From Mobula hypostoma (lineage: Eukaryota): a stretch of DNA of 64,000 nucleotides. Every line of letters starts with the position of its first letter. Position 1 is the first letter of the stretch. Under the pieces are notes generated by a model. It had not been told where the DNA came from. It saw only the letters and a list, made by a program, of their open reading frames with translations, and did not search any database. Below are positions 8,857 to 53,171 of this stretch, piece by piece. The DNA lies in contig NC_086097.1 of the NCBI RefSeq assembly GCF_963921235.1, forward strand, positions 67,892,001 through 67,956,000. The letters run 5' to 3'. Position numbers and translations under genes: made by a program.

Positions 8857-10525
8857 CTAGTCTCTGTATCTAGCTGGAAGTTTGACTTGTCTCCCAGACC
8901 GTGTGTGATACAACTGTGACTGTGCTTGACTTTCATCCGTGTCAGTCTCTCCAGTGACCTCTGTGTCTTTGGGGTCTGAATCGTTCTTGGTGTCGTTTGT
9001 TTCCATGTCTGTATATGTGAAAACGTCCTGTGCATCTGTACGTGGAAACATACTCTTGCTTGTCTTCAGCAGATGCTTCCTGTTCCTCCTATATTCTCTT
9101 CCATCCGGCATGTAAACTATGAAGGACCTTGGTTGCTGATGTCTGCTCACAACCACAGCTGATTGCCAAGTGTCTCCTCTCTGTATTCTGACATTTTCAC
9201 CTGTATGCAGATCTGGCAACTGTCTTGTATGTCTGTCATAGTAGCTCTTTTGCTTTATCTGCTTGTACTTTTGCTTGTCACGTACTTGAGCGTTACCTTC
9301 AGGGGTCAGTAGAGTTGTGGATGTTGGCAGTTTGGACTTCAGACGACGTCCCATCAACAGCTGCGCAGGAGAGAACCTCACACCCTCAATCGGTGTGTTG
9401 CGGTATTCAAGCAGAGCAATGTAAGGGTCACTGTCGCTGCTTTGTGCCTTCTTGAGCATGTTCTTGACAGTTTGTACAGTTCTCTCTGCTTGTCCATTAG
9501 ACTGAGCGTGCCCTGGACTGGAAGTAACATGTTGAAATTCCCAGCTTTCTGAGAACTCTCTGAACTTACCACTGGCATATTGTGGACCATTGTCACTGAC
9601 GACAGTATCTGGAATACCATGTCCTGCAAATGTCAACTTCATCGCAGTAATGACACCTCGACTGGACATGTCACTTAACTTGGTGATCTCCGGATATTTT
9701 GAATAGTAGTCCACACAATGCAGATATTCTGTACCATTGTAGTGAAAGAGATCTGTGCCAACCTTCTCCCATGGTCTTCCTGGTAGTGGGTGGGGAAGCA
9801 GAGGCTCTCTTGGATTGTTGTTTTGGTTTTCATTACAGACAGCACACTGAGACACAATGTCCTCTATCTGAGTTGACATGCCTGGCCAATAGAGAATGTC
9901 CCTTGCTCTTTCTTTACATTTCACTATGCCCAGGTGTGACTCATGAATTTTGTTGAGCATTTCCTGTCTCATTTGGTTTGGTACGATGAGTTTTGCTGTT
10001 TTAAACATTAGTCCTGATGCATAGCTGATTTCCTCTTTAAATGTCCAGTATTTCTGCATTTCCTTTGGAACATCTTTTCTTTCTGTTGGCCATCCATTCA
10101 TTGAAATGTCTCTTAGCATTTGCATTTCAGGATCATCTGCAGTTGCTTTCCTGAACATGTTCAACTTCTCCTCAGAGATGGGTAGCTGAGGTGTAACCCA
10201 GTTGACGTCCAGCTCTCTTCCTAGCAACTCTTCCTTCTGCTCTTTGAGGTAAGCACGGCTCAAAGCATCAGCGATGTGCAGTTCTTTTCCCGGCTTATAG
10301 GTGACTGTGAGAGTGTACCTCTGTAGCCTGAGAAGCATCCTTTGCAGCCTCATAGGAGCTTGGTGGAGTGGCCTTTTGAAGATGCTCTCATTTGGTTTGT
10401 GATCACTCTCAACCTGGATTTCTTTGCCATTTACATATTGGTGGAACTTCTCACACCCATAAACTATGGCAAGTAATTCCTTCTCGATTTGAGCATATTG
10501 GCATTGGCAGTCCGTAAGTGTCTTC
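8857..10525 (-). CDS. pol: Gypsy pol fragment: C-terminal RNase H and complete integrase (open frame, no native start)
   Basis: YAQIEKELLAIVYG..SDHKP (RNase H), HESH..CAVC zinc finger, GTDLF / VSDNG / QAERTV DDE triad, C-terminal TRSGRQVKLPARY. Confidence 0.9.
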
Positions 10526-10529
10526 AAGC

Positions 10530-10563
10530 GGAGGCGTGGGTTTGAATCCCACTTCTGACACCA
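10530..10563 (-). promoter_or_regulatory. Extended primer-binding site complementary to the tRNA-Leu 3' end including CCA
   Basis: The + strand reads GGAGGCGTGGGTTTGAATCCCACTTCTGACACCA, which matches the vertebrate tRNA-Leu(CAA) 3' end as I recall it at 33/34 nt (TTCGAA>TTTGAA). It abuts the 5' LTR. Confidence 0.88.
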
Positions 10564-12615
10564 TGTAATATTGATGTGACTCGGACACCGCTGTAGATTG
10601 AACAACCACGTTTATTCACCAGACTTCCATTTTTTTAAAACCCTTTTTCCACGTCCTGACGTCATATGCACTCTGACGCTACGAATACTCACACGATACA
10701 TTACAGGAACAACAAAAATCAAATTGACTACATAACAATCAATAACAGATACAAAAACTTGATAACTCAATCTAAAAGCTACCCTGGAGCAGACTGTGGA
10801 AGTGACCACATAACAGTCATTTACAAAATGAAAATAAAGATGAGGAAATTAAAGAAACCAAAAAGATCAGAACCACTGGATTATCAACAACTACAAAACA
10901 ACCCTCATGTGAAAATAGAATACACAATCAAGGTGAAAAACTGTTTTCAATTGTTGCGGGATGAAGGAGGCAAATCTTCCTGGGACATACTGAAGGAATC
11001 CATGGTTGAAGCTGCAAAAGAAACCATCCCATGAAAAGAACGGAAAAGTAAGAAGAAATGGATAACTGAAGATATAATATAATTGATGCAACAAAAACAG
11101 ACCATCAAACTAAGAGACAGCAAAGAATACAAACAACTTGATAATAAAAAGAAAATGCAGAGAAGCTAAAGACAGATGGCTAAATGAGAAATGCTCAGGG
11201 ATAGAAATGCTACAAACCCATAACCCTGGAACAAAGTTGATGCACAGTAAGATTAAAGAACTAACGGGGAAATTACCTTGCTCAGCAAGTGGATGCATCA
11301 AGGCAAAAGATGGCAGCTTAATTATGAGCAAAGAGGAAATCCTAAACAGATGGACAGAATATATAAAAGAACTTTTTGAAGACCAGAGAGGAGAAAAACT
11401 GAACATAAAGAAGATTCTTGAAGGACCTAGCATTCTACAATCAGAAATTCAAGCAGTTATAAATAAAACAAAACATAACAGCGCAACTGGTCCAGACAAC
11501 ATCGCTGTTGAAATGATACTGGCCTTAGAAGATTTTGGAATAGAGAGAATAACAGAAATAGCAAATGAAATCTGTGATCATGGGGAGATACCTGATGATT
11601 TAAGTAAATCAGTGTTCATCACACTTCCAAAGAAAGAGGGAGCAAAGAATGTGAGTTACATCGTACAATAAGCCTGATGAGCCACGTGGCAAAAATTATT
11701 CTCAGAGTAATCATGATGAGAGCAAAACGCTGTATTAAACCAGAAATCAGTAAAGAACAATGTGGCTTTGTGGAAAACACTGGAACCAGAAATTCAATTT
11801 TTATGCTACAGATGATCTGTGAACCAGCCATCCAGGTACAAAAAGACATCTACCTATGTTTCATCGACTATACAAAAGCTTTTGACACTGTCAAACACTA
11901 AGATCTTCTGGAAATACTTCAAGATCTTGGCATAGATGGGAAAGATAATATGTTTCTTAAGAAACTTATACTGGGATCAGACAGCATCCATCAGAATAGA
12001 AGGAGAAGTGAGTGAGTATATGAATATCATGAGAGGAGTCAGGCAAGGTTGTGTCTTTTCGCCAGACTTATTCAACCTGTACAGTGAAAATATTTTGAGA
12101 AGTATCAAAGACATCAAAGGATTCACAATTGGAGGCCAGAATATAAATAACATCAGATATGCTGATGACATCATACTAATAGCTGACTCAGAAACAACAC
12201 TTCAAGAACTACTCACTATAGTGGCAGCAGAAAGTAATCACAGAGGCCTCTCAATCAACACCAAGAAGACAGAAAGCATGGTCATCTCCAGAAAGACAAA
12301 CATCTCACAATGTGTGATTGAAGCACCTTCAATTACTCCAAAAGACTGAGGTTTGGTAAAATACTGAAAGGCTTTTATTCGCTGTACAATACGACCTCCA
12401 CAGTGAGTGTCTGCCCCCGGACTGAGGGGGAGGGGCAAGGCAAATACCTTTATACAGGACTCTGTGGGAGGAGCCACAGGGGCAGTCAGCAGAGGGGCGT
12501 GTCCAGACAGGTAACCCAGTTACAACATATATACATGGTTTACCACATTCACCCCTCTTTTTTTAAAAAGAGTCCCGCGGGGTGAAGTGACTGACAATAT
12601 TTACAAGAAGTATAT

Positions 12616-15011
12616 TTACAGGTTAAGTCTATCAGGCGGTCGAGTCCGTCGCTGTGACCTACGTAGCACTGGCGGTGATTACACTGGCGATGGCGGTTGT
12701 GCTGGCTCCAGCCTGACTTGAGGTATCAGCACGTTAGGCGTCGGTAATCCCTCGTGCGTGTGCGTCGCGCCCGGTATGGGAGTGTCGTGTGGTGTCTGTA
12801 TAGGGTTTGGGGTGCACGGTGTCTCGTAGGTACATACATTGGTGGGTACGGGGTCAATAGTCACCACGGAGTGTTCAGGGTAGGGGCCCGGAGCTCCTGC
12901 GGGTGCCAGGTCGCGGATGGAGACCGTGTCCTCCCGCCCATCAGGTAAAACCACGTAGGCATACTGGGGGTTCGCATGAAGTAAGTGAACCCTCTCGACT
13001 ATCGGGGAGTATTTATTGCTCCTCGCATGTTTCCGGAGCAGCACTGGCCCCGGGGACGTCAGCCAAGATGGTAGGGTGGTTCCAGTGGTCGATTTACTGG
13101 GAAAAGAAAAGAGCTGCTCATGAGGGGTGGCATTGGTGGCCGTGCATAACAGGGAGCGGATGGAGTGGAGTGCCTCGGGAAGGACCTCCTGCCAGCGGGA
13201 GACCGGCAGTCCCTTTGACCTGAGGGCTAAGAGTGTGGCCTTCCACACTGTGCCATTCTCCTTCTCTACCTGTCCATTCCCCCGGGGATTATAGCTCGTG
13301 GTCCTACTGGTTGCAATTCCCCTAGCCAGTAGATATTGGCGCAGCTCGTCACTCATAAATGAGGACCCTCTGTCACTGTGGATATAGCATGGGTATCCGA
13401 ACAGAGTGAAGAGCTTGTGCAGGGCTTTTATAACTGACGTGGTAGTGGTGTCGGGGTAGGGGATGGCGAAGGGGAACCGCGAGTACTCGTCAATTACGTT
13501 AAGAAAGTACACATTGCGGTCGATGGAGGGAAGGGGGCCCTTAAAGTCAATACTCAGTCGCTCAAAGGGGCCGGTGGCCTTGATGAGTGGTGCCTTTTCG
13601 GGTCAGTAGAAGTGCGGTTTGCACTCTGCGCAGACTTGGCAGTCCCTGGTCATCATCCTGATCTCCTCAAGGGAGTAAGGCAGGTTCCGGGCTTTCAAGA
13701 AGTGGAAAAGCCGGGTGACTCCCGGGTGGTAAAGGTCTACATGTAGGGCGTATAGCCGGTCGATCTGCGCGCTGGCGCACGTTCCCCGGGATAGGGCATC
13801 GGAGGGCTCGTTGAGCTTCCCAGGCCTGTACATGATGTCATAGTTGTAGGTGGAGAGTTCGATTCTCCACCTCAGAATTTTATCATTTTTGATTTTGCTC
13901 CGCTGCTGATTATTAAACATGAATGCGACTGAGTGCTGGTCAGTTAGCAGGGTGAACCTTTTGCCGGCAAGATAGTGCCTCCAGTGCCTTATAGCTTCCA
14001 CTATGGCCTGGGCCTCTTTCTCCACTGCAGAGTGCCGAATTTCAGGGCCTTGAAGGGTACAGGAGAAGAACGCCACTGGTCTTCCTGCCTGGTTGAGGGT
14101 AGCAGCCAGCGCAAAGTCGGAGGTGTCACTCTCCACTTGGAAGGGAATGGCCTCAACCACCGCATGCATTGCTGCTTTGGCAATGTCCCCTTTTATGAGG
14201 TTGAAGGCCACGTGGGCCTCGGCAGAGATGGGGAATGTGGTGGACTTGACCGGGGGCGGGCCTTGTCTGCATAGTTAGAGACCCATTGGGCGTAATATGA
14301 AAAGAAGCCCAGGCACCTTTTGAGGGCTCTGAGGGTATTGGGAAGAGGGAGTTCCAACAAGGGGCGCATACGGTCGGAGTCAGGGCCAATGACTCCATTC
14401 TCCACGACACACCCAAGGATAGCAAGTCGGGTGGTCCCAAATACATACTTGTCCTTGTTATAGGTGAGGTTGAAAGATTTGGCCGCTTGGAGAAATTTTT
14501 GGAGGTTGTTGTCGTGATCCTGCTGGTCGTGACCGCAGTTGGTGATGTTATCCAGATATGGGAACGTGGCCTTCAGTTGGCACTGGTCCACCATCCGGTC
14601 CATTGCCCTCTGGAAGACAGATACACCATTCGTGACACCAAAGGGGACGCGCAGGAATTGATAAAGCCTGCCGTCCGCCTCGAAGGCAGTGTAAGGGCGG
14701 TCCTCCCGGCGGATGGGGAGCTGATGGTAAGCGGATTTTAGGTCTATGGTCGAGTACACCTTGTACTGTGCTATCTGGTTGACCATATCCGCGATGCGGG
14801 GTAGAGAGTATGCGTCGAGCTGCGTGAACCTATTGATGGTCTGGCTATAGTCCACGACCATCCTATTTTTCTCTCCGTTCCGAACAACGACCACCTGCGC
14901 CCTCCAAGGACTTGTGCTTACCTCAATGACCCCCTCCCTGAGCAGCCGCTGCACCTCCGACTTAATGAAAGCTCTGTCCCCCGCGCTGTACCTCCTGCTT
15001 TTAGTTGCCAC
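12616..15011 (-). pseudogene. pol: Gypsy pol (RT-RNase H-integrase), disrupted
   Basis: RT motifs SPW..RMVVDY..IDLKSAYHQL..PFGVTNG..YLDN (catalytic D>N), RNase H ESDTS..EKEAQA..TDQH, integrase H..HPG..CQVC, IDEYSR / HSDRG / VEKEN. Frameshift near 14200-14260 and in-frame stops at 13603 and 12679. Natural end RRSQRRTRPPDRLNL* at 12616. Confidence 0.92.
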
Positions 15012-15015
15012 AGGT

Positions 15016-16494
15016 TTACAGTCGGGGGTCAGGTTGGCGAACAGTGGTGGGGGAGGGATCCTGAGGGTGGAGAGGCCGCAAGTGGTGTCGGTAGTGTGGC
15101 AGTTGGCATGATGTTGGGTGGGATGTGCGGGTCGGTGTGTGTGTGTGTGTGGTCAGTAGCGGGGTACGTGACATATCTCTGCAAAACAGGGGATTTATGA
15201 CAGTAATTGGCGGGAGGGGCCCATCATATTTCATTGTCACGCTTTTCAGGTGGCTCTGGAAGTCCAACCCCAGCAGCACAGGGGCAAACAGTTGAGGCAA
15301 GACCAGTAACGTAAAGTCCCGATATTCTGTGCCCTGAACCACTAGTGTCGCTACACAACCCCCCCGGATGTCTGTTGTATGCGACCCGGAGGCCATGGTG
15401 ACCCTCTGACTTACCGGCCGTATCATGAGTCCACAATGCTGCATCGTGGCCGGGTGGATAAAACTCTCCATGCTGCCTGTGTCAAACAGGCAGCTTGTCC
15501 TGTGCCCCTCCACCAGGATGTCCATCATTGACCTTGCGAGCTGGTGGGGAGCGCTTTGGTCAAGGGTCACGGAAGCCAGGGTGGGGTCGCTGTCTTGGTC
15601 CGGCGTGGTGGGGTGCCCTGTGAGCACCTGTTGGTCGTAGGCGGTGGGAGGTGGAGCCGACCGAGATGGCCGCCCCCATGTCTCGCACGTGGTGGCGTGC
15701 AGGGAAGATGGCGGCAGGCAAGATGGCGACCCCCACGTCTCGCACGCAGCGCTGCTCGATCCCGCTCGCGGTTTTGACTTACAGACCTTGGCGAAGTGGC
15801 CCTTCTTTCCGCAGCTGGAACAGGTAGCTTGTCGGGCCGGGCAGCGTTTCCGGGGGTGCTTCTCCGGTCCGCAGAAGTAGCACTTCGCGGACTCACGACT
15901 GGCAGCAGCCGTGGTCGATTCGCCGGCACGTTTCGGGGTCTGCGGCACCCACGAGGCCATCGGGGGATTGCGTGCCTGGAGAGCCTCGGAGTTATGCAGA
16001 GCGGCCTCCAACGTATCAGCCAGCTCCATCGCCGAACTTAGGGTAAGATTGGCTTTTTCCAGCAGCCGCTGGCGCACGTACACTGACCTGGTCCCCGTGA
16101 TGAAGGCGTCCCTCACCAGGAGTTCTGCATGCTGTGCCGCCGTCAGCTCCTGGCAATTGCAGGCTCGCACGAGCGTCTGTAGGGCCTGGACGAACTCAGC
16201 ACTCGATTCCCCGGGGCGTTGTTGCCGTGTCGCTAAACGGTGCCGAGCATAGACGCTGTTTATCGGCCGCAGGTATTGTCTTTTGAGTGCGTTCATTGCG
16301 CCACCATAGTTCGGCTGGTCTCTGACCCGTGGACTGACCCTGGAGAGTAGAACTCTGAGCTTCGCTACGGGGTCGGTCGCTTTAATCTCCTCTAGATACG
16401 CTTTGAAGCAGGCCAGCCAGAGTTCGAAAGTGTTTCCAGCTTCAGGTGTTTGCGGATTGAGGTCTAATTTTTCTGGTCTCAGGGACTGTTCCAT
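15016..16494 (-). CDS. gag: Gypsy gag-protease ORF (frameshifted from downstream pol)
   Basis: ATG 26 nt downstream of the 5' LTR. Two CCHC knuckles (CYFCGPEKHPRKRC, CSSCGKKGHFAKVC). Aspartic protease motifs LFDTGS and LLGLDF. Confidence 0.92.
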   Translation of the reverse strand: MEQSLRPEKLDLNPQTPEAGNTFELWLACFKAYLEEIKATDPVAKLRVLLSRVSPRVRDQPNYGGAMNALKRQYLRPINSVYARHRLATRQQRPGESSAEFVQALQTLVRACNCQELTAAQHAELLVRDAFITGTRSVYVRQRLLEKANLTLSSAMELADTLEAALHNSEALQARNPPMASWVPQTPKRAGESTTAAASRESAKCYFCGPEKHPRKRCPARQATCSSCGKKGHFAKVCKSKPRAGSSSAACETWGSPSCLPPSSLHATTCETWGRPSRSAPPPTAYDQQVLTGHPTTPDQDSDPTLASVTLDQSAPHQLARSMMDILVEGHRTSCLFDTGSMESFIHPATMQHCGLMIRPVSQRVTMASGSHTTDIRGGCVATLVVQGTEYRDFTLLVLPQLFAPVLLGLDFQSHLKSVTMKYDGPLPPITVINPLFCRDMSRTPLLTTHTHTPTRTSHPTSCQLPHYRHHLRPLHPQDPSPTTVRQPDPRL

Positions 16495-16622
16495 GTTTTA
16501 AAATGTACAGCGAATAAAATTGAAGCACCTTCAATTACTCCAAAAGACTGAGGTTTGGTAAAATACTGAAAGGCTTTTATTCGCTGTACAATACGACCTC
16601 CACAGTGAGTGTCTGCGCCCGG

Positions 16623-16656
16623 ACTGAGGGGGAGGGGCAAGGCGAACACCTTTATA
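16623..16656 (-). promoter_or_regulatory. Putative LTR promoter: TATAAA box and TCAGT initiator
   Basis: TATAAA on the - strand at 16656-16651 and TCAGT at 16627-16623 (A about 31 nt downstream of the TATA start). AATAAA follows at ~16581-16576. Confidence 0.6.
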
Positions 16657-17385
16657 CAGGACTCTGTGGGAGGAGCCACAGGGGCAGTCAGCAGAGGGGT
16701 GTGTCCAGACAGGTAACCCAGTTACAACATATATACATGGTTTACCACAGTGATCAAGATCAGAAATACAAACATCAGACAAGTCAACAAATTCCGATAT
16801 CTTGGCAGCCTAACAACGAGTGATGGCAGGTGCGACACAGATATCAAATACAGAATAGCAATGGCGAAAGAAGCTTTCCAAAAAATGAAGACCATGTTAA
16901 CAGACAGAAAGATGAGCATATACACTAAAAACAAAATACTGCAGTGCTACAGTTATTCTATCCTGACTTATGGAAGTGAATGCTGGACCATTTCCCCAGC
17001 AATGGCAAAGAGACTAGAAGCAGCTGAATTATGGTTCTACGGGAGAATGTTAAAAATATCATGGACCACACACACATCAAATGAAGAAGTTCTCAGAAGA
17101 GCCCAAGCAGTTCGATCACTCATACCAACAATAAGAGAAAGACAACTCAGATTCCTAGGACACATCATGCGGAATGATGAACTAGAAAAACTCATACTCC
17201 CTGGAAAGATCGAGGGAGCAAACCTAGAGGAAGACCTCGGCTTATGTACATCAAAAGCATAGCCAGGTGGCTACACATCGAGGAAATGGAAGACATCCAA
17301 AAAACGAAGGATAGATCTATATGGAAAACCATGGTCACCAACGTCTGCATCGGATATGGTACCTGGACAGACAGATTATACTGGT

Positions 17386-17676
17386 TTTAAAAATGCAAAC
17401 ACGAGGAATTCTGCAGCTGCTGGAAATTCAAGCAACACACATCAAAGTTGCTGGCGAACGCCTTTTGCCAATCACCTGTCCAGCTCTTGGCTCCATCCCT
17501 CCCCCTCCTGTCTTCTCCTATCATTTTGGATCTCCCCCTCCCCCTTTGAAATCTCTTACTAGCTCTTTCTTCAGTTAGTCCTGACGAAGGGTCTCGGCCT
17601 GAAACGTCGACTGTACCTCTTCCTAGAGATGCTGCCTGGCCTGCTGTGTTCGCCAGCAACTTTGATGTGTGTTGCT
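17386..17676 (+). mobile_element. Short Penelope-like element 3' end (pseudo-LTR) with an inverted 5' piece
   Basis: 17461-17676 matches the 3' UTR of the PLE at 47570-47795, and 17386-17460 is its inverted tail. Perfect 14-bp TSD CAGATTATACTGGT (17372-17385, 17677-17690). Confidence 0.9.
17577..17612 (+). ncRNA. Minimal type I hammerhead ribozyme (Penelope-associated)
   Basis: AGTC-CTGACGA-A-GGGTCTCGGCCT-GAAAC-GTC-GACT: stem I AGTC/GACT, core CUGANGA and GAAA, GUC cleavage triplet, helix III reduced to the palindrome ACGT. Confidence 0.8.
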
Positions 17677-33068: not shown

Positions 33069-34057
33069 ATGTGTATAAATGACATGTACCTTCGAATGCT
33101 GTTCATAGACTTCAGTTCAGCATTCAACACAATCATTCCTCAGAAACCGATTAGAAAGCTGAGCCTACTGGGCCTGAACACCTCCCTCTGCAACTGGATC
33201 CTAGACTTCCTGACTGGGAGGCCTCAGTCAGTCCAGATTGGAAGCAGCATCTCCAACACCATCACAGTGAGCACGGGGCCCCTCAGGGCTGTGTGCTCAG
33301 CCCACTGTTGTTCACTCTGCTGACCCACGACTGTGCTGCAACACACAGCTCGAACCACATCATCAAGTTTGCCGATGACACGACTGTGGTGGGTCTCGTC
33401 AGCAAGAACAATGAGTCAGCATACAGAGAGGAGGTGCAGCGGCTAATAGACTGGTGCAGAGCCAACAACCTGTCTCTGAATGTGAACAAAACAAAAGAGA
33501 TGGTTGTTGACTTCAGGAGGACATGGAACGACCACTCTCCGCTGAACATCAACGACTCCTCTGTAGAGATCGTTAAGAGCACCAAATTTCTTGGTGTTCA
33601 CCTGGCGGAGACTCTCACCTGGTCCCTCAACACCAGCTCCATAGCAAAGAAAGCCCAGCAGCATCTCTACTTTTTGCGAAGGCTGAGAAAAGTCCATCTC
33701 CCACCCCCCATCCTCACCACATTCTACAGAGGTTGTATTGAGAGCATCCTGAGCAGCTGCATCACTGCCTGGTTCGGAAATTGCACCATCTCGGATTGCA
33801 AGACCCTGCAGCGGATAATGAGGTCAGCTGAGAAGATCATCAGAGTCTCTCTTCCTGCCATTCCAGACATTTACACCACACACTGCATCCATAAAGCAAA
33901 CAGCATAATGAAGGACCCCACGCACCCCTCATACGAACTCTTCTCCTTCCTACTGTCTGGCAAAAGGCACCAAAGCATTCGGGCTTTCACAACCAGACTA
34001 TGTAACAGTTTCTTCCCCCAAGCCATTAGACTACTCAATACCCAGATCCTGGACTGA
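33069..34057 (+). pseudogene. RT C-terminal half of the Rex1/Babar LINE (one frameshift near 33280)
   Basis: ORFs 33069-33323 and 33293-34057 join into RT domains 3-7 plus the C-terminal region. Confidence 0.88.
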
Positions 34058-44360: not shown

Positions 44361-45692
44361 TTGAGATGAGTTGCAAGTAAATTGGACCTGCAGTTATTGC
44401 AAGCATACTCACTGCTCTACATATTGCAGGAATACAACAGAATAGTGGCTAAATTCCAGGGCTGGCATGCAGATTCCTGCACTATTGATCTGGTGATAAA
44501 AGGTCAAATCCTTCAATGGCAGCAGGAGAATTTAAATGCAATCAATTAAATTCCTTGATGTGCTGGGGTCAAGGATGTAGCTAAACAATGATACAACATT
44601 CTGAGGCAGAAGAGTGTAGAAGCAGAGGTCATGATCCAGATAGATACCAATAGCAGATTGAAAGGAGATGCCATTCTACAAGCAGATTACAAGGGCAGTA
44701 CTGGCAGCTCAACCTTTGCATTGCATTTGAATGTTTCCCTGCGACACCCAGGGCATCAAGCATGCTTGTAGTAAATGCAGGCACAAAATACATTTGCAAG
44801 CAATCCAAGTTACAGAGGTTTCAAAATGGAGAACTGGGTAAAAGAACAGTCACAGTAGCAAAATCAATTAAAGCATGGAAGTGTAGGTTTTCTGACACAC
44901 ATTTTAACTACTATGTGAGAGAAAAGGTAGCTAACGGACTAAGGAATGGATATAGGTGGGAGTGAGAGAGGACAAAGAAGGCACCTATCACTATCTAGTT
45001 AGATTTCAGGATTGTTATGGTAAAGGACCAAGATACATCAGAAATAACTTCTAATCGGGGAAAGGCCCATTTACCAGGCTGAGAATATAACTAAAAGTGA
45101 ACTAGAAACAGCTATTTGAAGGTAACTCAAAAAAGTGGCAGACTCTCAAAGAGGAGACACTAAGAATGTCCAAATATATTCCAAATAAAATAAAAGGTAA
45201 CACTCCCATATCTAAATCCCACAGGAGTGAATTCTTATGACCCAATTTAGTGGACCTGATGTCATATCAGCATGATCTACCTAATTTGCACTAGTTGCTA
45301 TACTGACCTATTTGCAAACAGCACAAGTCACACTAAAAATATTTGCTTCCACTTTGCTTTGAGAAGTGAAACCAAATTAACACTAGATGCTGAAAAAACC
45401 CAATTCCACATGGCTTACCTTTTCTTTTAGAATTAAAAAATGCATTGTGGATAATTCATCTGGTTTAGCTAGTGGTTCTGAGTTCTGTGGTTAACCAGGT
45501 GCCCAGGTAACAATCGAGTTTCATCTTCAAGTCAAATCTCATTGCAGTTGGAAATTAAATTTTTGTTCGTAAGAATTTCTTCTATTTTCTAATCTGGAGC
45601 AGCATGTTCAGAGTTTTAATCAGTTGAATTTATTTATTACTTACTTATGTAAAAAATCCATTTTTCTTCAGAAATGAGATCCTTAGTATATT

Positions 45693-47396
45693 TACCCCTC
45701 GATCGTGACCCCACTAAGGAGCACCAGGCCACTGTCTCCCACACTATCAACGACTTTATCCGCTCAGGGGATCTCCCATCCACTGCTACCAACCTTATAG
45801 TTCCCACACCCCGCACTTCCCGTTTCTACCTCCTACCCAAGATCCACAAACCTGCCTGTCCTGGCCGACCTATTGTCTCAGCTTGCTCCTGCCCCACCGA
45901 ACTCGTTTCTGCATACCTCGACACTGTTTTATCACCCCTTGTTCAATCCCTTCCGACCTATGTTCGTGACACTTCTCACGCTCTTAAACTTTTCGATGAT
46001 TTTAAGTTCCCTGGCCCCCACCGCTTTATTTTCACCATGGATGTCCAGTCCCTATATACTTCCATCCCCCATCAGGAAGGTCTCAAAGCTCTACGCTTCT
46101 TTTTGGATTCCAGACCTAATCAGTTCCCCTCTACCACCACTCTGCTCCGTCTAGCAGAATTAGTCCTTACTCTTAATAATTTCTCCTTTTGCTCCTCCCA
46201 TTTCCTCCAAACTAAAGGTGTAGCTATGGGCACCCGTATGGGTCCTAGCTATGCCTGCCTTTTTGTTGGGTTTGTGGAACAATCTATGTTCCGTGCCTAT
46301 TCTGGTATCTGTCCCCCACTTTTCCTTCGCTACATCGACGACTGCATTGGCGCTGCTTCCTGCACGCATGCAGAACTCGTTGACTTTATTAACTTTGCCT
46401 CCAACTTTCACCCTGCCCTCAAGTTTACCTGGTCCATTTCCGACACCTCCCTCCCCTTTCTAGATCTTTCTGTCTCTGTCTCTGGAGACAGCTTATCCAC
46501 TGATGTCTACTATAAGCCTACTGACTCTCACAGCTATCTGGACTATTCCTCTTCTCACCCTGTCTCTTGCAAAAACGCCATCCCCTTCTCGCAATTCCTC
46601 CGTCTCCGCCGCATCTGCTCTCAGGATGAGGCTTTTCATTCTAGGACGAGGGAGATGTCTTCATTTTTTAAAGAAAGGGGCTTCCCTTCCTCCACTTTCA
46701 ACTCTGCTCTTAAACGCATCTCCCCCATTTCACGTACATCTGCTCTCACTCCATCCTCCCACCACCCCACTAGGAATAGGGTTCCCCTGGTCCTCACCTA
46801 CCACCCCACCAGCCTCCGGGTCCAACATATTATTCTCCGTAACTTCCGCCACCTCCAACGGGATCCCACCACTAAGCATATCTTTCTCTCCCCCCCTCTC
46901 TGCATTCCGCAGGGATCGCTCCCTACACAACTCCCTTGTCCATTCGTCCCCCCCATCCCTCCCCACTGATCTCCCTCCTGGCACTTATCCGTGTAAGCGG
47001 AACAAGTGCTACACATGCCCTTACACTTCCTCCCTTACCACCATTCAGGGCCCCAAACAGTCCTTCCAGGTGAGGCATCACTTCACCTGTGAGTCGACTG
47101 GGGTGATATACTGCGTCCGGTGCTCCCGATGTGGCCTTTTATATATTGGTGAGACCCGACGCAGACTGGGAGACCGCTTTGCTGAACATCTACGCTCTGT
47201 CCGCCAGAGAAAGCAGGATCTCCCAGTGGCCACACATTTTAATTCCACATCCCATTCCCATTCTGACATGTCTATCCACGGCCTCCTCTACTGTAAAGAT
47301 GAAGCCACACTCAGGTTGGAGGAACAACACCTTATATTCCGTCTGGGTAGCCTCCAACCTGATGGCATGAACATTGACTTCTCTAACTTCCGCTAG
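45693..47396 (+). pseudogene. PLE ORF (RT core, thumb, GIY-YIG) with a single frameshift near 46885-46900
   Basis: ORF 45674-46969 (RT) and the end of ORF 46503-47396 (GIY-YIG). The copy at 50581-51306 reads through this point as HIFPSPHLSAFRRD. Confidence 0.9.
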
Positions 47397-50253: not shown

Positions 50254-51503
50254 CAGGACTAACTGAAAGAAGAACTAGTAAGAGATTCGAAAGTGGGAGT
50301 GGGAGGGGGAGGGGGAGATCCGAACTGATAGGGGAAGACAGGAGGCGGAGGGATGGAGCCAAGAGCTGGACAGGTGATTAGCAAAAGGGATATGAGGGGA
50401 TCATGGGACAGGAGGCCTAGGGAGAAAGAAAAGGGGAGGGGGGAAGCCCAGAGGATGGGCAAGGGATATAGTGAGAGGGACAGAGGGAGAGAAAGGAGAG
50501 AGAGAAAAAGAATGTGTGTATATAAATAAATAATGGATGGGGTACGAGGGGGAGGTGGGGTACAAGGGGGAGGTTGGGAATTAGTGGAAGTTTGAGAAGT
50601 CAATGTTCATGCCATCAGGTTGGAGGCTACCCAGACGGAATATAAGGTGTTGTTCCTCCAACCTGAGTGTGGCTTCATCTTTACAGTAGAGGAGGCTGTG
50701 GATAGACATATCAGAATGGGAATGGGATGTGGAATTAAAATGTGTGGCCACTGGGAGATCCTGCCTTCTCTGGCGGACAGAGCGTAGGTGTTCAGCGAAA
50801 TAATCTCCCAGTCTGTGTCGGGTCTCGCCAATATATAGAAGGCCAGATTGGGAGCACCGGACGCAGTATATCACCCCAGAACGCTCACAGGTAAAGTGTC
50901 GCCTCACCTGGAAAGACTGTCTGGGGCCCTGAATGTAAGGGCATGTGTAGCACTTGTTCCACTTACAAGGATAAGTACCAGGAGGGAGATCAGTGGGGAG
51001 GGATGAGGGGGACGAAGTGACAAGAGAGTCGCGTAGGGAGCGATCCCTGCGGAAAGCAGAGAGATGGGGGGATGGAAAGATATGCTTAGTGGTGGGATCC
51101 CGTTGGAGGTGGCGGAAGTTATGGAGAATTATATGTTGGACCCGCAGGCTGGTGGGGTGGTAGGTGTCGACAAGGGGAACCTTATTCCTAGTGGGGTTGC
51201 GGGAGGATGGAGTGAGAGCAGACGTGCGTGAAATGGGGGAGATGCGTTTGAGAGCAGAGTTGATGGTGGAGGAAGGAAAGCCCCTTTCTTTATAAAAGGA
51301 GAACATTTCCTTCGTCCTGGAATGAAAAGCCTCATCCTGAGAGCAGATACGGCGGAGATGGAGAAATTGCGAGAAGGGGATGGCATTTTTGCAAGAGACA
51401 GGGTGAGAAGAGGAATAGTCCAGATAGCTGTGAGAGTCAGTAGGCTTACAGTAGACATCAGTAGATAAGCTGTCTCCAGAGATAGAGACAGAAAGATCTA
51501 GAA
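50254..51503 (-). mobile_element. Penelope-like element, inverted arm
   Basis: ORF 50581-51306 encodes the RT thumb and GIY-YIG. The arm is the reverse complement of 51802-53041. Confidence 0.93.
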
Positions 51504-53171
51504 TTAGTCCTTACTCTTAATAATTTCTCCTTTGGCTCCACCCACTTCCTCCAAATTAAAGGTGTAGCCATGGGCACCCGTATGGGTCCCAGATATGCCT
51601 GCCTTTTTGTTGGCTTTGTGGAACAATCTATGTTCCAAACCTATTCTGGTATCTGTCCCCCACTTTTCCTTCGCTACATCAACAACTGCTTTGGCTCTGC
51701 TTCCTGCACACATGCTGAGCTTGTTGACTTCATTAACTTTGCCTCCAACTTTCACCCTGCCCTCAAGTTTACCTGGTCCATTTCCGACACCTCCCTCCCC
51801 TTTCTAGATCTTTCTGTCTCTGTCTCTGGAGACAGCTTATCTACTGATGTCTACTAAAAGCCTACTGACTCTCACAGCTATCTGGACTATTCCTCTTCTC
51901 ACCCTATCTCTTGCAAAAATGCCATCCCCTTCTCGCAATTCCTCCGTCTCCGCTGCATCTGCTCTCAGGATGAGGCTTTTCATTCTAGGACGAGGGAGAT
52001 GTCCTCCTTTTTTAAAGAAAGGGGCTTCCCTTCCTCCACCATCAACTCTGCTCTCAAACGCATCTCCCCCATTTCACGCACATCTGCTCTCACTCCATCC
52101 TCCCCACTAGGAATAGGGTTCCCCTTGTCCTCACCTACCACCCCACCAGCCTGCAGGTCCAACATATAATTCTCTGCAACTTCCGCCACCTCCAATAGGA
52201 TCCCACCACTAAGCACATCTTTCCCTCCCCCCACTGCTTTCTGCAGGGATTGCTCCCTACGCGACTCCCTTGTCCATTCGTCCCCCCCCCCATCCCTCCG
52301 CACCGATCTCCCTCCTGGCACTTAACCTTGTAAGCGGAACAAGTGCTACACATGCCCTTACACTTCCTCCCTCACTACCATTCAGGGCCCTAGACAGTCC
52401 TTCCAGGTGAGGCGGCACTTCACCTGTGAGTCAGCTGGGGTGATATACCGCATCCGGTGCTCCCAAAGCGGCCTTCTATATATTGGCAAGACCCAATGCT
52501 GACTGGAAGATCATTTCGCTGAACACCTATGCTCTGTTCACCAGAGAAAGCAGGATCTTCCAGTGGCCACACATTTTAATTCCACGTCCCATTCCCATTC
52601 TGATATGTCTATCCACGGCCTCCTCTACTGTAAAGACGAAGCCACACTCAGGTTGAAGGAACAACACCTTATATTCCATCTGGGTAGCCTCCAACCTGAT
52701 GGCGTGAACATTGACTTCTCAAACTTCCACTAATGCCCCACCTCCCCCTCATACCCCATCCATTATTTATTTATTTATATGCACACATTCTTTTTCCCTC
52801 TCTCCTTTTTCTCCCTCTGTCCCTCTCACTATATCCCTTACCCATCCTCTGGGCTTCCCCCCTCCCCCTTTTCTTTCTCCCTGGGCCTCCTGTCCCATGA
52901 TTCCCTCATATCCCTTTTGCCAATCACCTGTCCAGCTCTTGGCTCCATCTCTCCCCCTCCTGTCTTCCCCTATCAGTTCGGATCTCCCCCTCCCCCTCCC
53001 ACTTTCAAATCTCTTACTCGCTCTTCTTTCAGTTAGTCCTGACGAAGAGTCTCGGCCCAAAACGTCAACTGTACCTCTTCCTAGAGATGCTGCCTGGCCT
53101 GCTGCGTTCACCAGCAACTTTTGTGTGTGTTGCTTGAAATTCCAGCATCTGCAGATTTCCTCATGTTTGCG
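51500..53171 (+). mobile_element. Penelope-like element, forward arm (5'-truncated, disrupted)
   Basis: GVAMGTRMGP, LRYINN (catalytic DD lost), GIY-YIG remnant, 3' UTR with a decayed hammerhead at 53035-53070. Confidence 0.93.

Follow-up and report, generated by a model that had tools for sequence, protein, structure and literature searches.

A 64,000-nt stretch of the genome of Mobula hypostoma (contig NC_086097.1), here called the window and numbered from its first letter, was analysed. On its minus strand the window carries an LTR (long terminal repeat) retrotransposon of 4,431 bp, which probably primes its own reverse transcription with a segment of its own RNA, in the manner of the fission-yeast element Tf1, instead of using a tRNA; from sequence comparison, the probability of this reading is put at about 0.78. 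A short site directly downstream of the 5' LTR was read as the primer-binding site (PBS) of a self-primer because it starts one base past the LTR edge, pairs with a stretch inside the LTR of the same element, and co-varies with this stretch in about 20 families. The position at the LTR edge is telling, because the end of the minus-strand primer sets this edge. The architecture and the lineage of this self-priming system were not found described in the literature searched; the mechanism itself is of a known kind.

The 5' LTR (229 nt, TG..CA, 16749-16521; all coordinates of the element refer to the minus strand) is separated from the ATG of gag (16494) by a leader of 26 nt (16520-16495). The leader is composed of a spacer base A (16520), which sits between the terminal CA of the LTR and the PBS, of the PBS TTTTATTCGCTGTACA (16519-16504), and of the sequence TTTTAAAAC. 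The PBS forms an inverted repeat with the proposed self-primer segment TGTACAGCGAATAAAA of the 5' LTR (16590-16575), which ends in AATAAAA, and with the copy of this segment in the 3' LTR (12388-12373); the complementarity is perfect over 16 nt in both cases. The 3' end of the LTR segment faces the first base of the PBS, 1 nt from the LTR end, which is the geometry of a primer. Of 200 dinucleotide shuffles made from the 303 nt that precede gag, none gave an inverted repeat as long as 16 nt; the longest repeat averaged 7.0 nt. By its form, the leader holds no PBS of the tRNA type, as it contains no TGG; this was judged by form and not against the tRNA set of the host. A search of positions 12200-16900 against Rfam with E-values up to 1 matched no family, and the single call made by ARAGORN over the window lay inside pol on the other strand. 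This call, a 91-nt tRNA-Gly at 13786-13876 (plus strand) opposite the RNase H region of the element, is probably false. An earlier note on this DNA had given the limits of the LTRs, the leader and the 16-nt complement, and had described the lack of a tRNA-type PBS and the primer geometry of the pairing; all of this holds on the minus strand.

Relatives were identified by their Pol proteins in rays (93% and 79% identity) and catsharks (68-77%) and, at a greater distance of 49-60% identity, in cnidarians, a crinoid, a mussel, a rotifer and nematodes. Metagenome contigs were scanned with a pol alignment, which yielded 80 loci with 40-67% Pol identity. Metagenome elements with an LTR pair around pol had a size of 3.9-4.6 kb, one element of 6.7 kb holding extra DNA, and their LTRs aligned over 85-248 nt (most over 155-248 nt, some being cut by contig ends). 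The bases directly after the 5' LTR again complemented an LTR-internal segment in these relatives. In a uniform test, gag was located by similarity, and the longest perfect inverted repeat was determined in the 300 nt before its start. The test comprised 32 rows, namely the window and 31 metagenome loci in which 120 nt or more precede gag. In 27 of these rows the longest inverted repeat was 10-19 nt long and was reached in 0-6 of 200 shuffles (shuffle mean about 7.3 nt). The 3' arm adjoined a CA in every positive row, and at positive loci with both LTRs delimited this CA was the LTR end as aligned. At 80% nucleotide identity the 32 rows fell into 22 clusters, 18 of them positive. Three loci were too short upstream for the test; two of them (L066 with 14 nt, and L065) showed the pairing by eye across contig ends.

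The arms vary by family, and each is matched by its own PBS; examples are GTTTACGCGTAATAAA, TTTCTAGTCGAATAAA, TGATTCTAAGCTGTTAAAA, ATTATGTTGCTGATTAAA, ATTAAGTTTTGAAGA and ATGTAGACAAAT. Between two and four types of Watson-Crick pairs were counted at each of 12 helix positions. Matched double changes were also detected within clusters, from T-A to G-C (L052 versus L058, L059 and L115) and from C-G to T-A (L060 versus L057). The earlier note had made its proposal depend on conservation of the complementarity in diverged relatives and on compensatory changes in both segments; the pairing proved to be kept with different sequences in the positive families, and the compensatory changes were present. 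A sister group with a tRNA-type PBS was sought among the 21 remaining loci, none of which had an LTR pair around pol.

The architecture was compared across 21 listed elements. The arms had a length of 10-19 nt and the loop between them of 21-68 nt. The motif RCC directly followed the 5' arm in 17 elements, and the 8 nt preceding the 3' arm ended in ..CAA, that is, the CA of the LTR plus one A, likewise in 17. In most families an A precedes the TG of the 3' LTR, and an A follows the CA of the 5' LTR; an A at both LTR edges agrees with a linear DNA that has one additional base per end. The duplex of arm and PBS closed all eight leader RNA folds that were computed (six elements, the window in two lengths), with z-scores of -3.4 to -9.0. 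In the window, a stem-loop of the LTR part U5 (GCCUU...AAGGUGC, 16574-16525) is predicted directly 3' of the primer segment (z -7.4 for 16590-16495). The folds of relatives have a small predicted RCCU..AGGY hairpin next to the duplex; the U5 stem is longer in the window. The two PBS-adjacent duplexes of Tf1, as described in an excerpt of PMC10085805, were not found in these folds, which were not searched for them systematically.

The arm is also linked to the polyadenylation signal. AATAAA at 16581-16576 is the only one of its kind in the LTR, and no other canonical hexamer occurs in the arm, in the loop or within 150 nt upstream. Of 18 family representatives, 11 have a canonical AATAAA or ATTAAA as the 3' end of the LTR arm, in 9 of them as the sole canonical hexamer of the scanned region; the other 7 are paired as well but have no canonical hexamer in the arm. 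The earlier note's postulate that primer and poly(A) signal overlap holds for the window; such an overlap is frequent among the representatives but not universal. As the primer segment carries the hexamer of the LTR in many families, the duplex may, as a secondary effect also suggested in the earlier note, hide the poly(A) signal at the 5' end of the RNA.

Copies of the element in the same genome (3.48 Gb, 200 contigs) were used to define the trait at the family level. With a query of LTR and leader, 1,509 first-look candidates were obtained, and the 40 that were scored were 97-100% identical. In the 30 copies first fetched the LTR arm was nearly invariant, the last base of the PBS was A or G, and the arrangement was alike in all, which speaks against the alternative, raised in the earlier note, that the window copy is a rearranged one. 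The exact pattern of arm, loop and PBS occurred 385 times in the genome. Genome-wide matches of an exact 30-mer had A at the last PBS position in 171 cases, G in 162 and the other CpG decay product in 13. The trait of the family is therefore 15 Watson-Crick pairs plus an A-U or a G.U pair, each in about half of the copies. The perfect 16-mer of the earlier note is correct for a subset of copies, including that in the window, and not for the family as a whole.

The split between A and G is not plain CpG decay, because 171 copies stand against 13. On a quick tree the label of this base changed 16 times, counted without a comparison to shuffled labels. Among 68 family copies, 59 other common polymorphic sites (minor allele at least 12%) had a median r2 of 0.02, and this mosaic polymorphism suggests frequent recombination between subfamilies during reverse transcription. 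The A/G split was also considered as a trace of primer copying; this was rejected, since the site is one among 59 or more common, weakly linked polymorphisms. A search for the 15-mer outside the LTRs gave 632 matches; among the 100 listed, 88 were the PBS on the other strand and 12 had A or C as the next base, which was uninformative. The 67%-identical homolog P0013, used to look for more distant families in this genome, retrieved 12 loci, all belonging to the same family at 93-96% DNA identity.

For the priming reaction the following course is proposed. In the genomic RNA, the LTR segment of 15-16 nt (16590/16589-16575, ending AAUAAAA) would pair with the PBS, and the U5 stem-loop would stack on the duplex of primer and PBS. 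The RNase H of the element would cut the RNA after 16575, at the junction of this duplex and the U5 stem, like the enzyme of Tf1 after base 11. From the freed 3'-OH, synthesis would proceed across the spacer A, U5 and what remains of the repeated region (R) of the RNA, resulting in a strong-stop DNA of about 55 nt whose 5' end would be joined to RNA reading ..GCGAAUAAAA. The plus strand would later copy the primer and so renew the PBS, and this would keep both segments complementary.

The start of the RNA decides how closely this course could follow that of Tf1. A possible promoter is predicted by motif at 16656-16622, where TATAAA (16656-16651) is followed by an initiator-like TCAGTC with its A at 16625. 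The spacing of 31 nt is classical, and in 70 5' LTRs of the genome no variation of 15% or more was seen in either motif. An RNA starting at 16625 would hold the primer segment internally; the segment could also be supplied by the 3' copy of R or by a second RNA. Two cuts or another form of trimming would be needed in this mode, which is unlike that of Tf1 and had been suggested in the earlier note; it is considered unlikely. The duplex would tolerate it, as the additional 35 nt upstream folded alone and left the duplex undisturbed in the second fold of the window. In the other families, by contrast, inspection by eye revealed no TATA-like motif upstream of the arm whose distance from it was constant. 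The most probable start of the RNA, clearly favoured within the self-priming reading, is the 5' edge of the primer segment (16590/16589), because the complementarity stops sharply there, as it does after 10-19 nt in every family, and because a longer primer would, by the standard scheme of reverse transcription, leave the plus-strand strong-stop DNA with a non-matching 3' tail at its transfer. Doubtful, too, is the more far-reaching combination of an animal-wide lineage with a self-primer inside R and not at the cap, cuts at the junction of two stacked helices, and a pairing that hides the only poly(A) signal of the 5' LTR, so that a single duplex would settle both the priming and the choice between the 5' and 3' poly(A) signals.

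The duplex of LTR and leader might instead be a regulatory or packaging hairpin only, acting in the hiding of the poly(A) signal, in dimerisation or in encapsidation, while another primer is used. The frequent hexamer at the end of the LTR arm would suit such a role, and so would the presence of the complement solely downstream of the 5' LTR, by which the 3' copy of the signal stays free. A parallel is known from HIV-1, in which a hairpin including AAUAAA is thought to limit the use of the 5' poly(A) signal; that hairpin is local and is present at both ends of the RNA, whereas the partner strand in the window family is the PBS, at the 5' end only. A hairpin without a priming role would leave unexplained, however, why the 3' arm begins one base past the CA of the LTR in the window and in most of the listed relatives, exactly where a minus-strand primer must end. 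It would also have to find its other primer a place within 26 nt between LTR and gag that have no likeness to a tRNA end, and the representatives that pair without a canonical hexamer in the arm do not fit the hiding of a signal. This reading is regarded as improbable in its exclusive form; the roles of hairpin and primer are compatible and may coexist. A cellular RNA as primer (part of a tRNA, a small nuclear RNA or another RNA), with an incidental match to the LTR, was given hardly any weight, as was the origin of the copy by rearrangement from a tRNA-primed element. No support was found for either, apart from the fact that the AAGTTGATTAAA-like part of the arm shared by several families could be mimicked by a common cellular primer. 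Very different arms each match their own LTR (window, L049, L055, L061, L073, L074, L076, L080, L090 and L127), the arrangement recurs throughout the copies of the genome, and neither Rfam nor ARAGORN pointed to a cellular RNA at the site. The family-specific matched arms, the shuffles and the multi-copy arrangement exclude a cellular primer, chance and a rearranged copy.

Several observations weigh against self-priming or weaken the case for it. Covariation is unable to separate the two roles of the duplex, as selection for a hairpin with another function would yield the same changes. The predicted start at the TATA and initiator motifs lies 35 nt upstream of the primer segment and does not fit a simple Tf1 scheme. 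Five of the 32 rows (four of the 22 clusters) were without clear pairing: in L083 an AT microsatellite outranked a pairing of 9 nt seen by eye, L084 is an old, degenerate copy with 16 nt and three mismatches by eye, L123 had 8 nt, which was not significant, and L125/L126 had 15 nt with one mismatch. The AAGTTGATTAAA-like similarity of the arm among several families means that the helix positions are not all independent; between families, the last 10 nt of the arms were 60% identical, a value that fell to 48% when the four innermost were left out. Within the genome, matched CpG changes in both arms were weakly enriched (385 copies unchanged, 41 and 28 with single changes, 9 with both; odds ratio 3.0, one-sided p 0.011), an enrichment that differences in copy age could cause. 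For a second CpG pair, where doubles alone were counted, 3 were found. Finally, none of the public runs listed was recorded as RNA, and the contigs of four runs looked like genomic DNA, their LTR ends continuing into diverse flanks, and showed no places at which an RNA starts or ends.

Excerpts of the cited papers were used for the comparison with known systems. In the Tf1 scheme as given there, the mRNA anneals to the PBS by its 5' part, the resulting duplex is cut at its end by RNase H, and DNA synthesis continues from the 3' end thus created; further duplexes flank the site (PMC4600332, PMC10085805). Self-priming is reported as demonstrated for Tf1; proposals exist for Tf1/sushi elements in fungi and in vertebrates, for elements of the Tcn1 type in non-seed plants and for copia elements of the TAR lineage (PMC6317226, PMC10085805, PMC4600332, PMC6934838). 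Tf1 and Tf2 of Schizosaccharomyces pombe and Tj1 of S. japonicus are shown or strongly implied self-primers (PMC4600332, PMC10085805). Like these, the window family has no tRNA-type PBS; its PBS lies just past the CA of the 5' LTR, and the LTR segment that pairs with it is located downstream of the promoter (here a predicted one). Further RNA structure, predicted in the window family, adjoins the duplex in both, and a cut is needed at the 3' end of the primer segment. Unlike the window family, Tf1-type elements carry a chromodomain, their primer has been shown to consist of the initial bases of the mRNA, and their RNA forms a "pretzel" of three duplexes (PMC10085805). The window family and its relatives, in turn, have no chromodomain, a duplex of 10-19 bp, a predicted hairpin directly 3' of the primer, and an arm that usually ends in a poly(A)-type hexamer. 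The Tf1/sushi elements of vertebrates (sushi-ichi) are likewise vertebrate-borne Ty3/gypsy elements with proposed self-priming (PMC6317226, PMC4600332, PMC10085805) but are chromoviruses, whereas no chromodomain is listed for the window family and its best 120 protein relatives. For the Tcn1-clade chromoviruses of non-seed plants and the Ty1/copia elements of the TAR lineage, self-priming was likewise predicted from complementarity of PBS and LTR and the lack of a tRNA match (PMC6317226); these belong to other lineages and hosts, and none is a metazoan element without a chromodomain.

The remaining anatomy of the element is that of a Ty3/gypsy retrotransposon. The 3' LTR (TG..CA, 12547-12319) is 98% identical to the 5' LTR. 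The LTR limits were set by the direct repeat, by the target-site duplication, by matches that begin at the TG in all 30 other copies found, and by diverse loose ends at exactly 16521 and 16749 in contigs of the four public runs. A target-site duplication of 5 bp, ATCAC, was read directly from the sequence at 16754-16750 and 12318-12314; the same duplication also flanks one other copy (L033). The polypurine tract AAAAAAAGAGGGGTGAA (12564-12548) abuts the 3' LTR, and similar tracts are carried by relatives. An open frame of 492 codons (16494-15016) encodes gag, with two CCHC knuckles, and an aspartic protease. The window copy is short of 12 nt in gag at about 16323; these are present in other copies and in public contigs, where they encode four extra residues. 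Pol (15152-12682) is divided into reverse transcriptase (15152-14196), RNase H (14274-13606) and integrase (13602-12682), and the window copy is regarded as decayed because these three parts sit in shifted frames. The Pfam domains occur in the order gag, protease, reverse transcriptase, RNase H and integrase, which together with the LTRs, the polypurine tract and the 5-bp duplication identifies the element as Ty3/gypsy (Metaviridae). The solved structure closest to its pol is that of the yeast Ty3 Gag-Pol (E 1.8e-62). Five further copies with two LTRs span 4.16-4.45 kb, and a sixth fetched copy has one LTR only; matching 5-bp duplications were present in four of the five further copies with junctions read, and some copies hold one open frame of about 1,300 codons. 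The family is young, of high copy number and compact (about 4.4 kb), and is without a chromodomain.

The two CCHC knuckles and the missing chromodomain had already been reported in the earlier note and were borne out by the frames and by Pfam scans. No chromodomain appeared in the Pfam lists of the best 120 homologs, and no Chromo match at E-values up to 0.1 was obtained in any of five proteins scanned or in the integrase frames of the window. By this feature, the lineage does not belong to Tf1/sushi. Judged by its features, it is plausibly Mag-like, as the earlier note proposed, and perhaps of the C-clade. Mag C-clade elements (SURL-like), as described in an excerpt of PMC3601003, are compact and have short LTRs, with a mean of 174 nt in an LTR training set, that end in AYANAACA. 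Many LTRs of the relatives end in ..AACA; that of the window starts with TGTGG and ends in ..TTCA. The two knuckles and the lack of a chromodomain are shared with the C-clade, and so is a wide spread in cnidarians, molluscs, echinoderms and fishes (for the C-clade, an excerpt of PMC6238403). A full-text literature search returned no paper that ties self-priming to Mag, SURL, Jule, Cigr-1 or the C-clade; the original papers on SURL, Jule and Cigr-1 and that of Butler et al. lay outside this search and may hold an earlier mention.

The active site of the reverse transcriptase reads YLDN (14547-14558; YIDN in the mussel relative), where reverse transcriptases usually have YxDD. All five full proteins that were read (P0001, P0005, P0013, P0039 and P0114) have Y(L/I)DN; the motif thus characterises the lineage, from rays to cnidarians, and is not a defect of the window copy. 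According to an excerpt of PMC2148107, the Ty1 enzyme with one active-site Asp changed to Asn retains polymerase activity in vitro. Neither YLDN nor YIDN was found as a whole word among the listed matches of the full-text search.

The element was inserted within a plus-strand reverse-transcriptase frame of the long interspersed nuclear element (LINE) type (11936-12346 and 16717-17259, plus); the left part of this frame matched RVT_1, and the right part was without a Pfam match. In the flank upstream of the element there is a perfect inverted repeat of 29 nt (17431-17459 and 17648-17676) with 188 nt between the arms. A second, different Gypsy-type fragment at 8860-10611 (minus) has RNase H, the zinc-binding domain of integrase and the integrase core in one frame of 584 codons, its 5' part being missing. 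Two frames at 45653-47393 (plus) and 50584-51510 (minus) gave a weak GIY-YIG nuclease match just under the Pfam cut-off, and one of them comes after a frame with a weak reverse-transcriptase match that is also under the cut-off; this suggests Penelope-like elements. A LINE-like reverse-transcriptase frame at 33155-34054 (plus) also matched Pfam ALKBH8_N (E 1.9e-21), which is an odd pairing.

Self-priming has so far been demonstrated only in the Tf1-type elements of fission yeasts; for related chromoviruses and a small number of lineages in plants it has been proposed. Its signature is now found in a lineage without chromodomains whose hosts include rays, sharks, cnidarians, molluscs and echinoderms, among other animals, and whose copies number many hundreds in the genome of Mobula hypostoma. 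If the reading is true, independence from tRNA would be far commoner among animal retrotransposons than annotation tools assume, and tools that look for tRNA sites would call such elements "PBS-less". Defences aimed at tRNA primer sites, such as 3' tRNA fragments, would miss the lineage. The compact, well-defined structure of the element's RNA would also lend itself to tests of how RNase H chooses its cut, and the overlap of primer and poly(A) hexamer would be a simple, testable answer to the question of how very short LTRs avoid premature polyadenylation.

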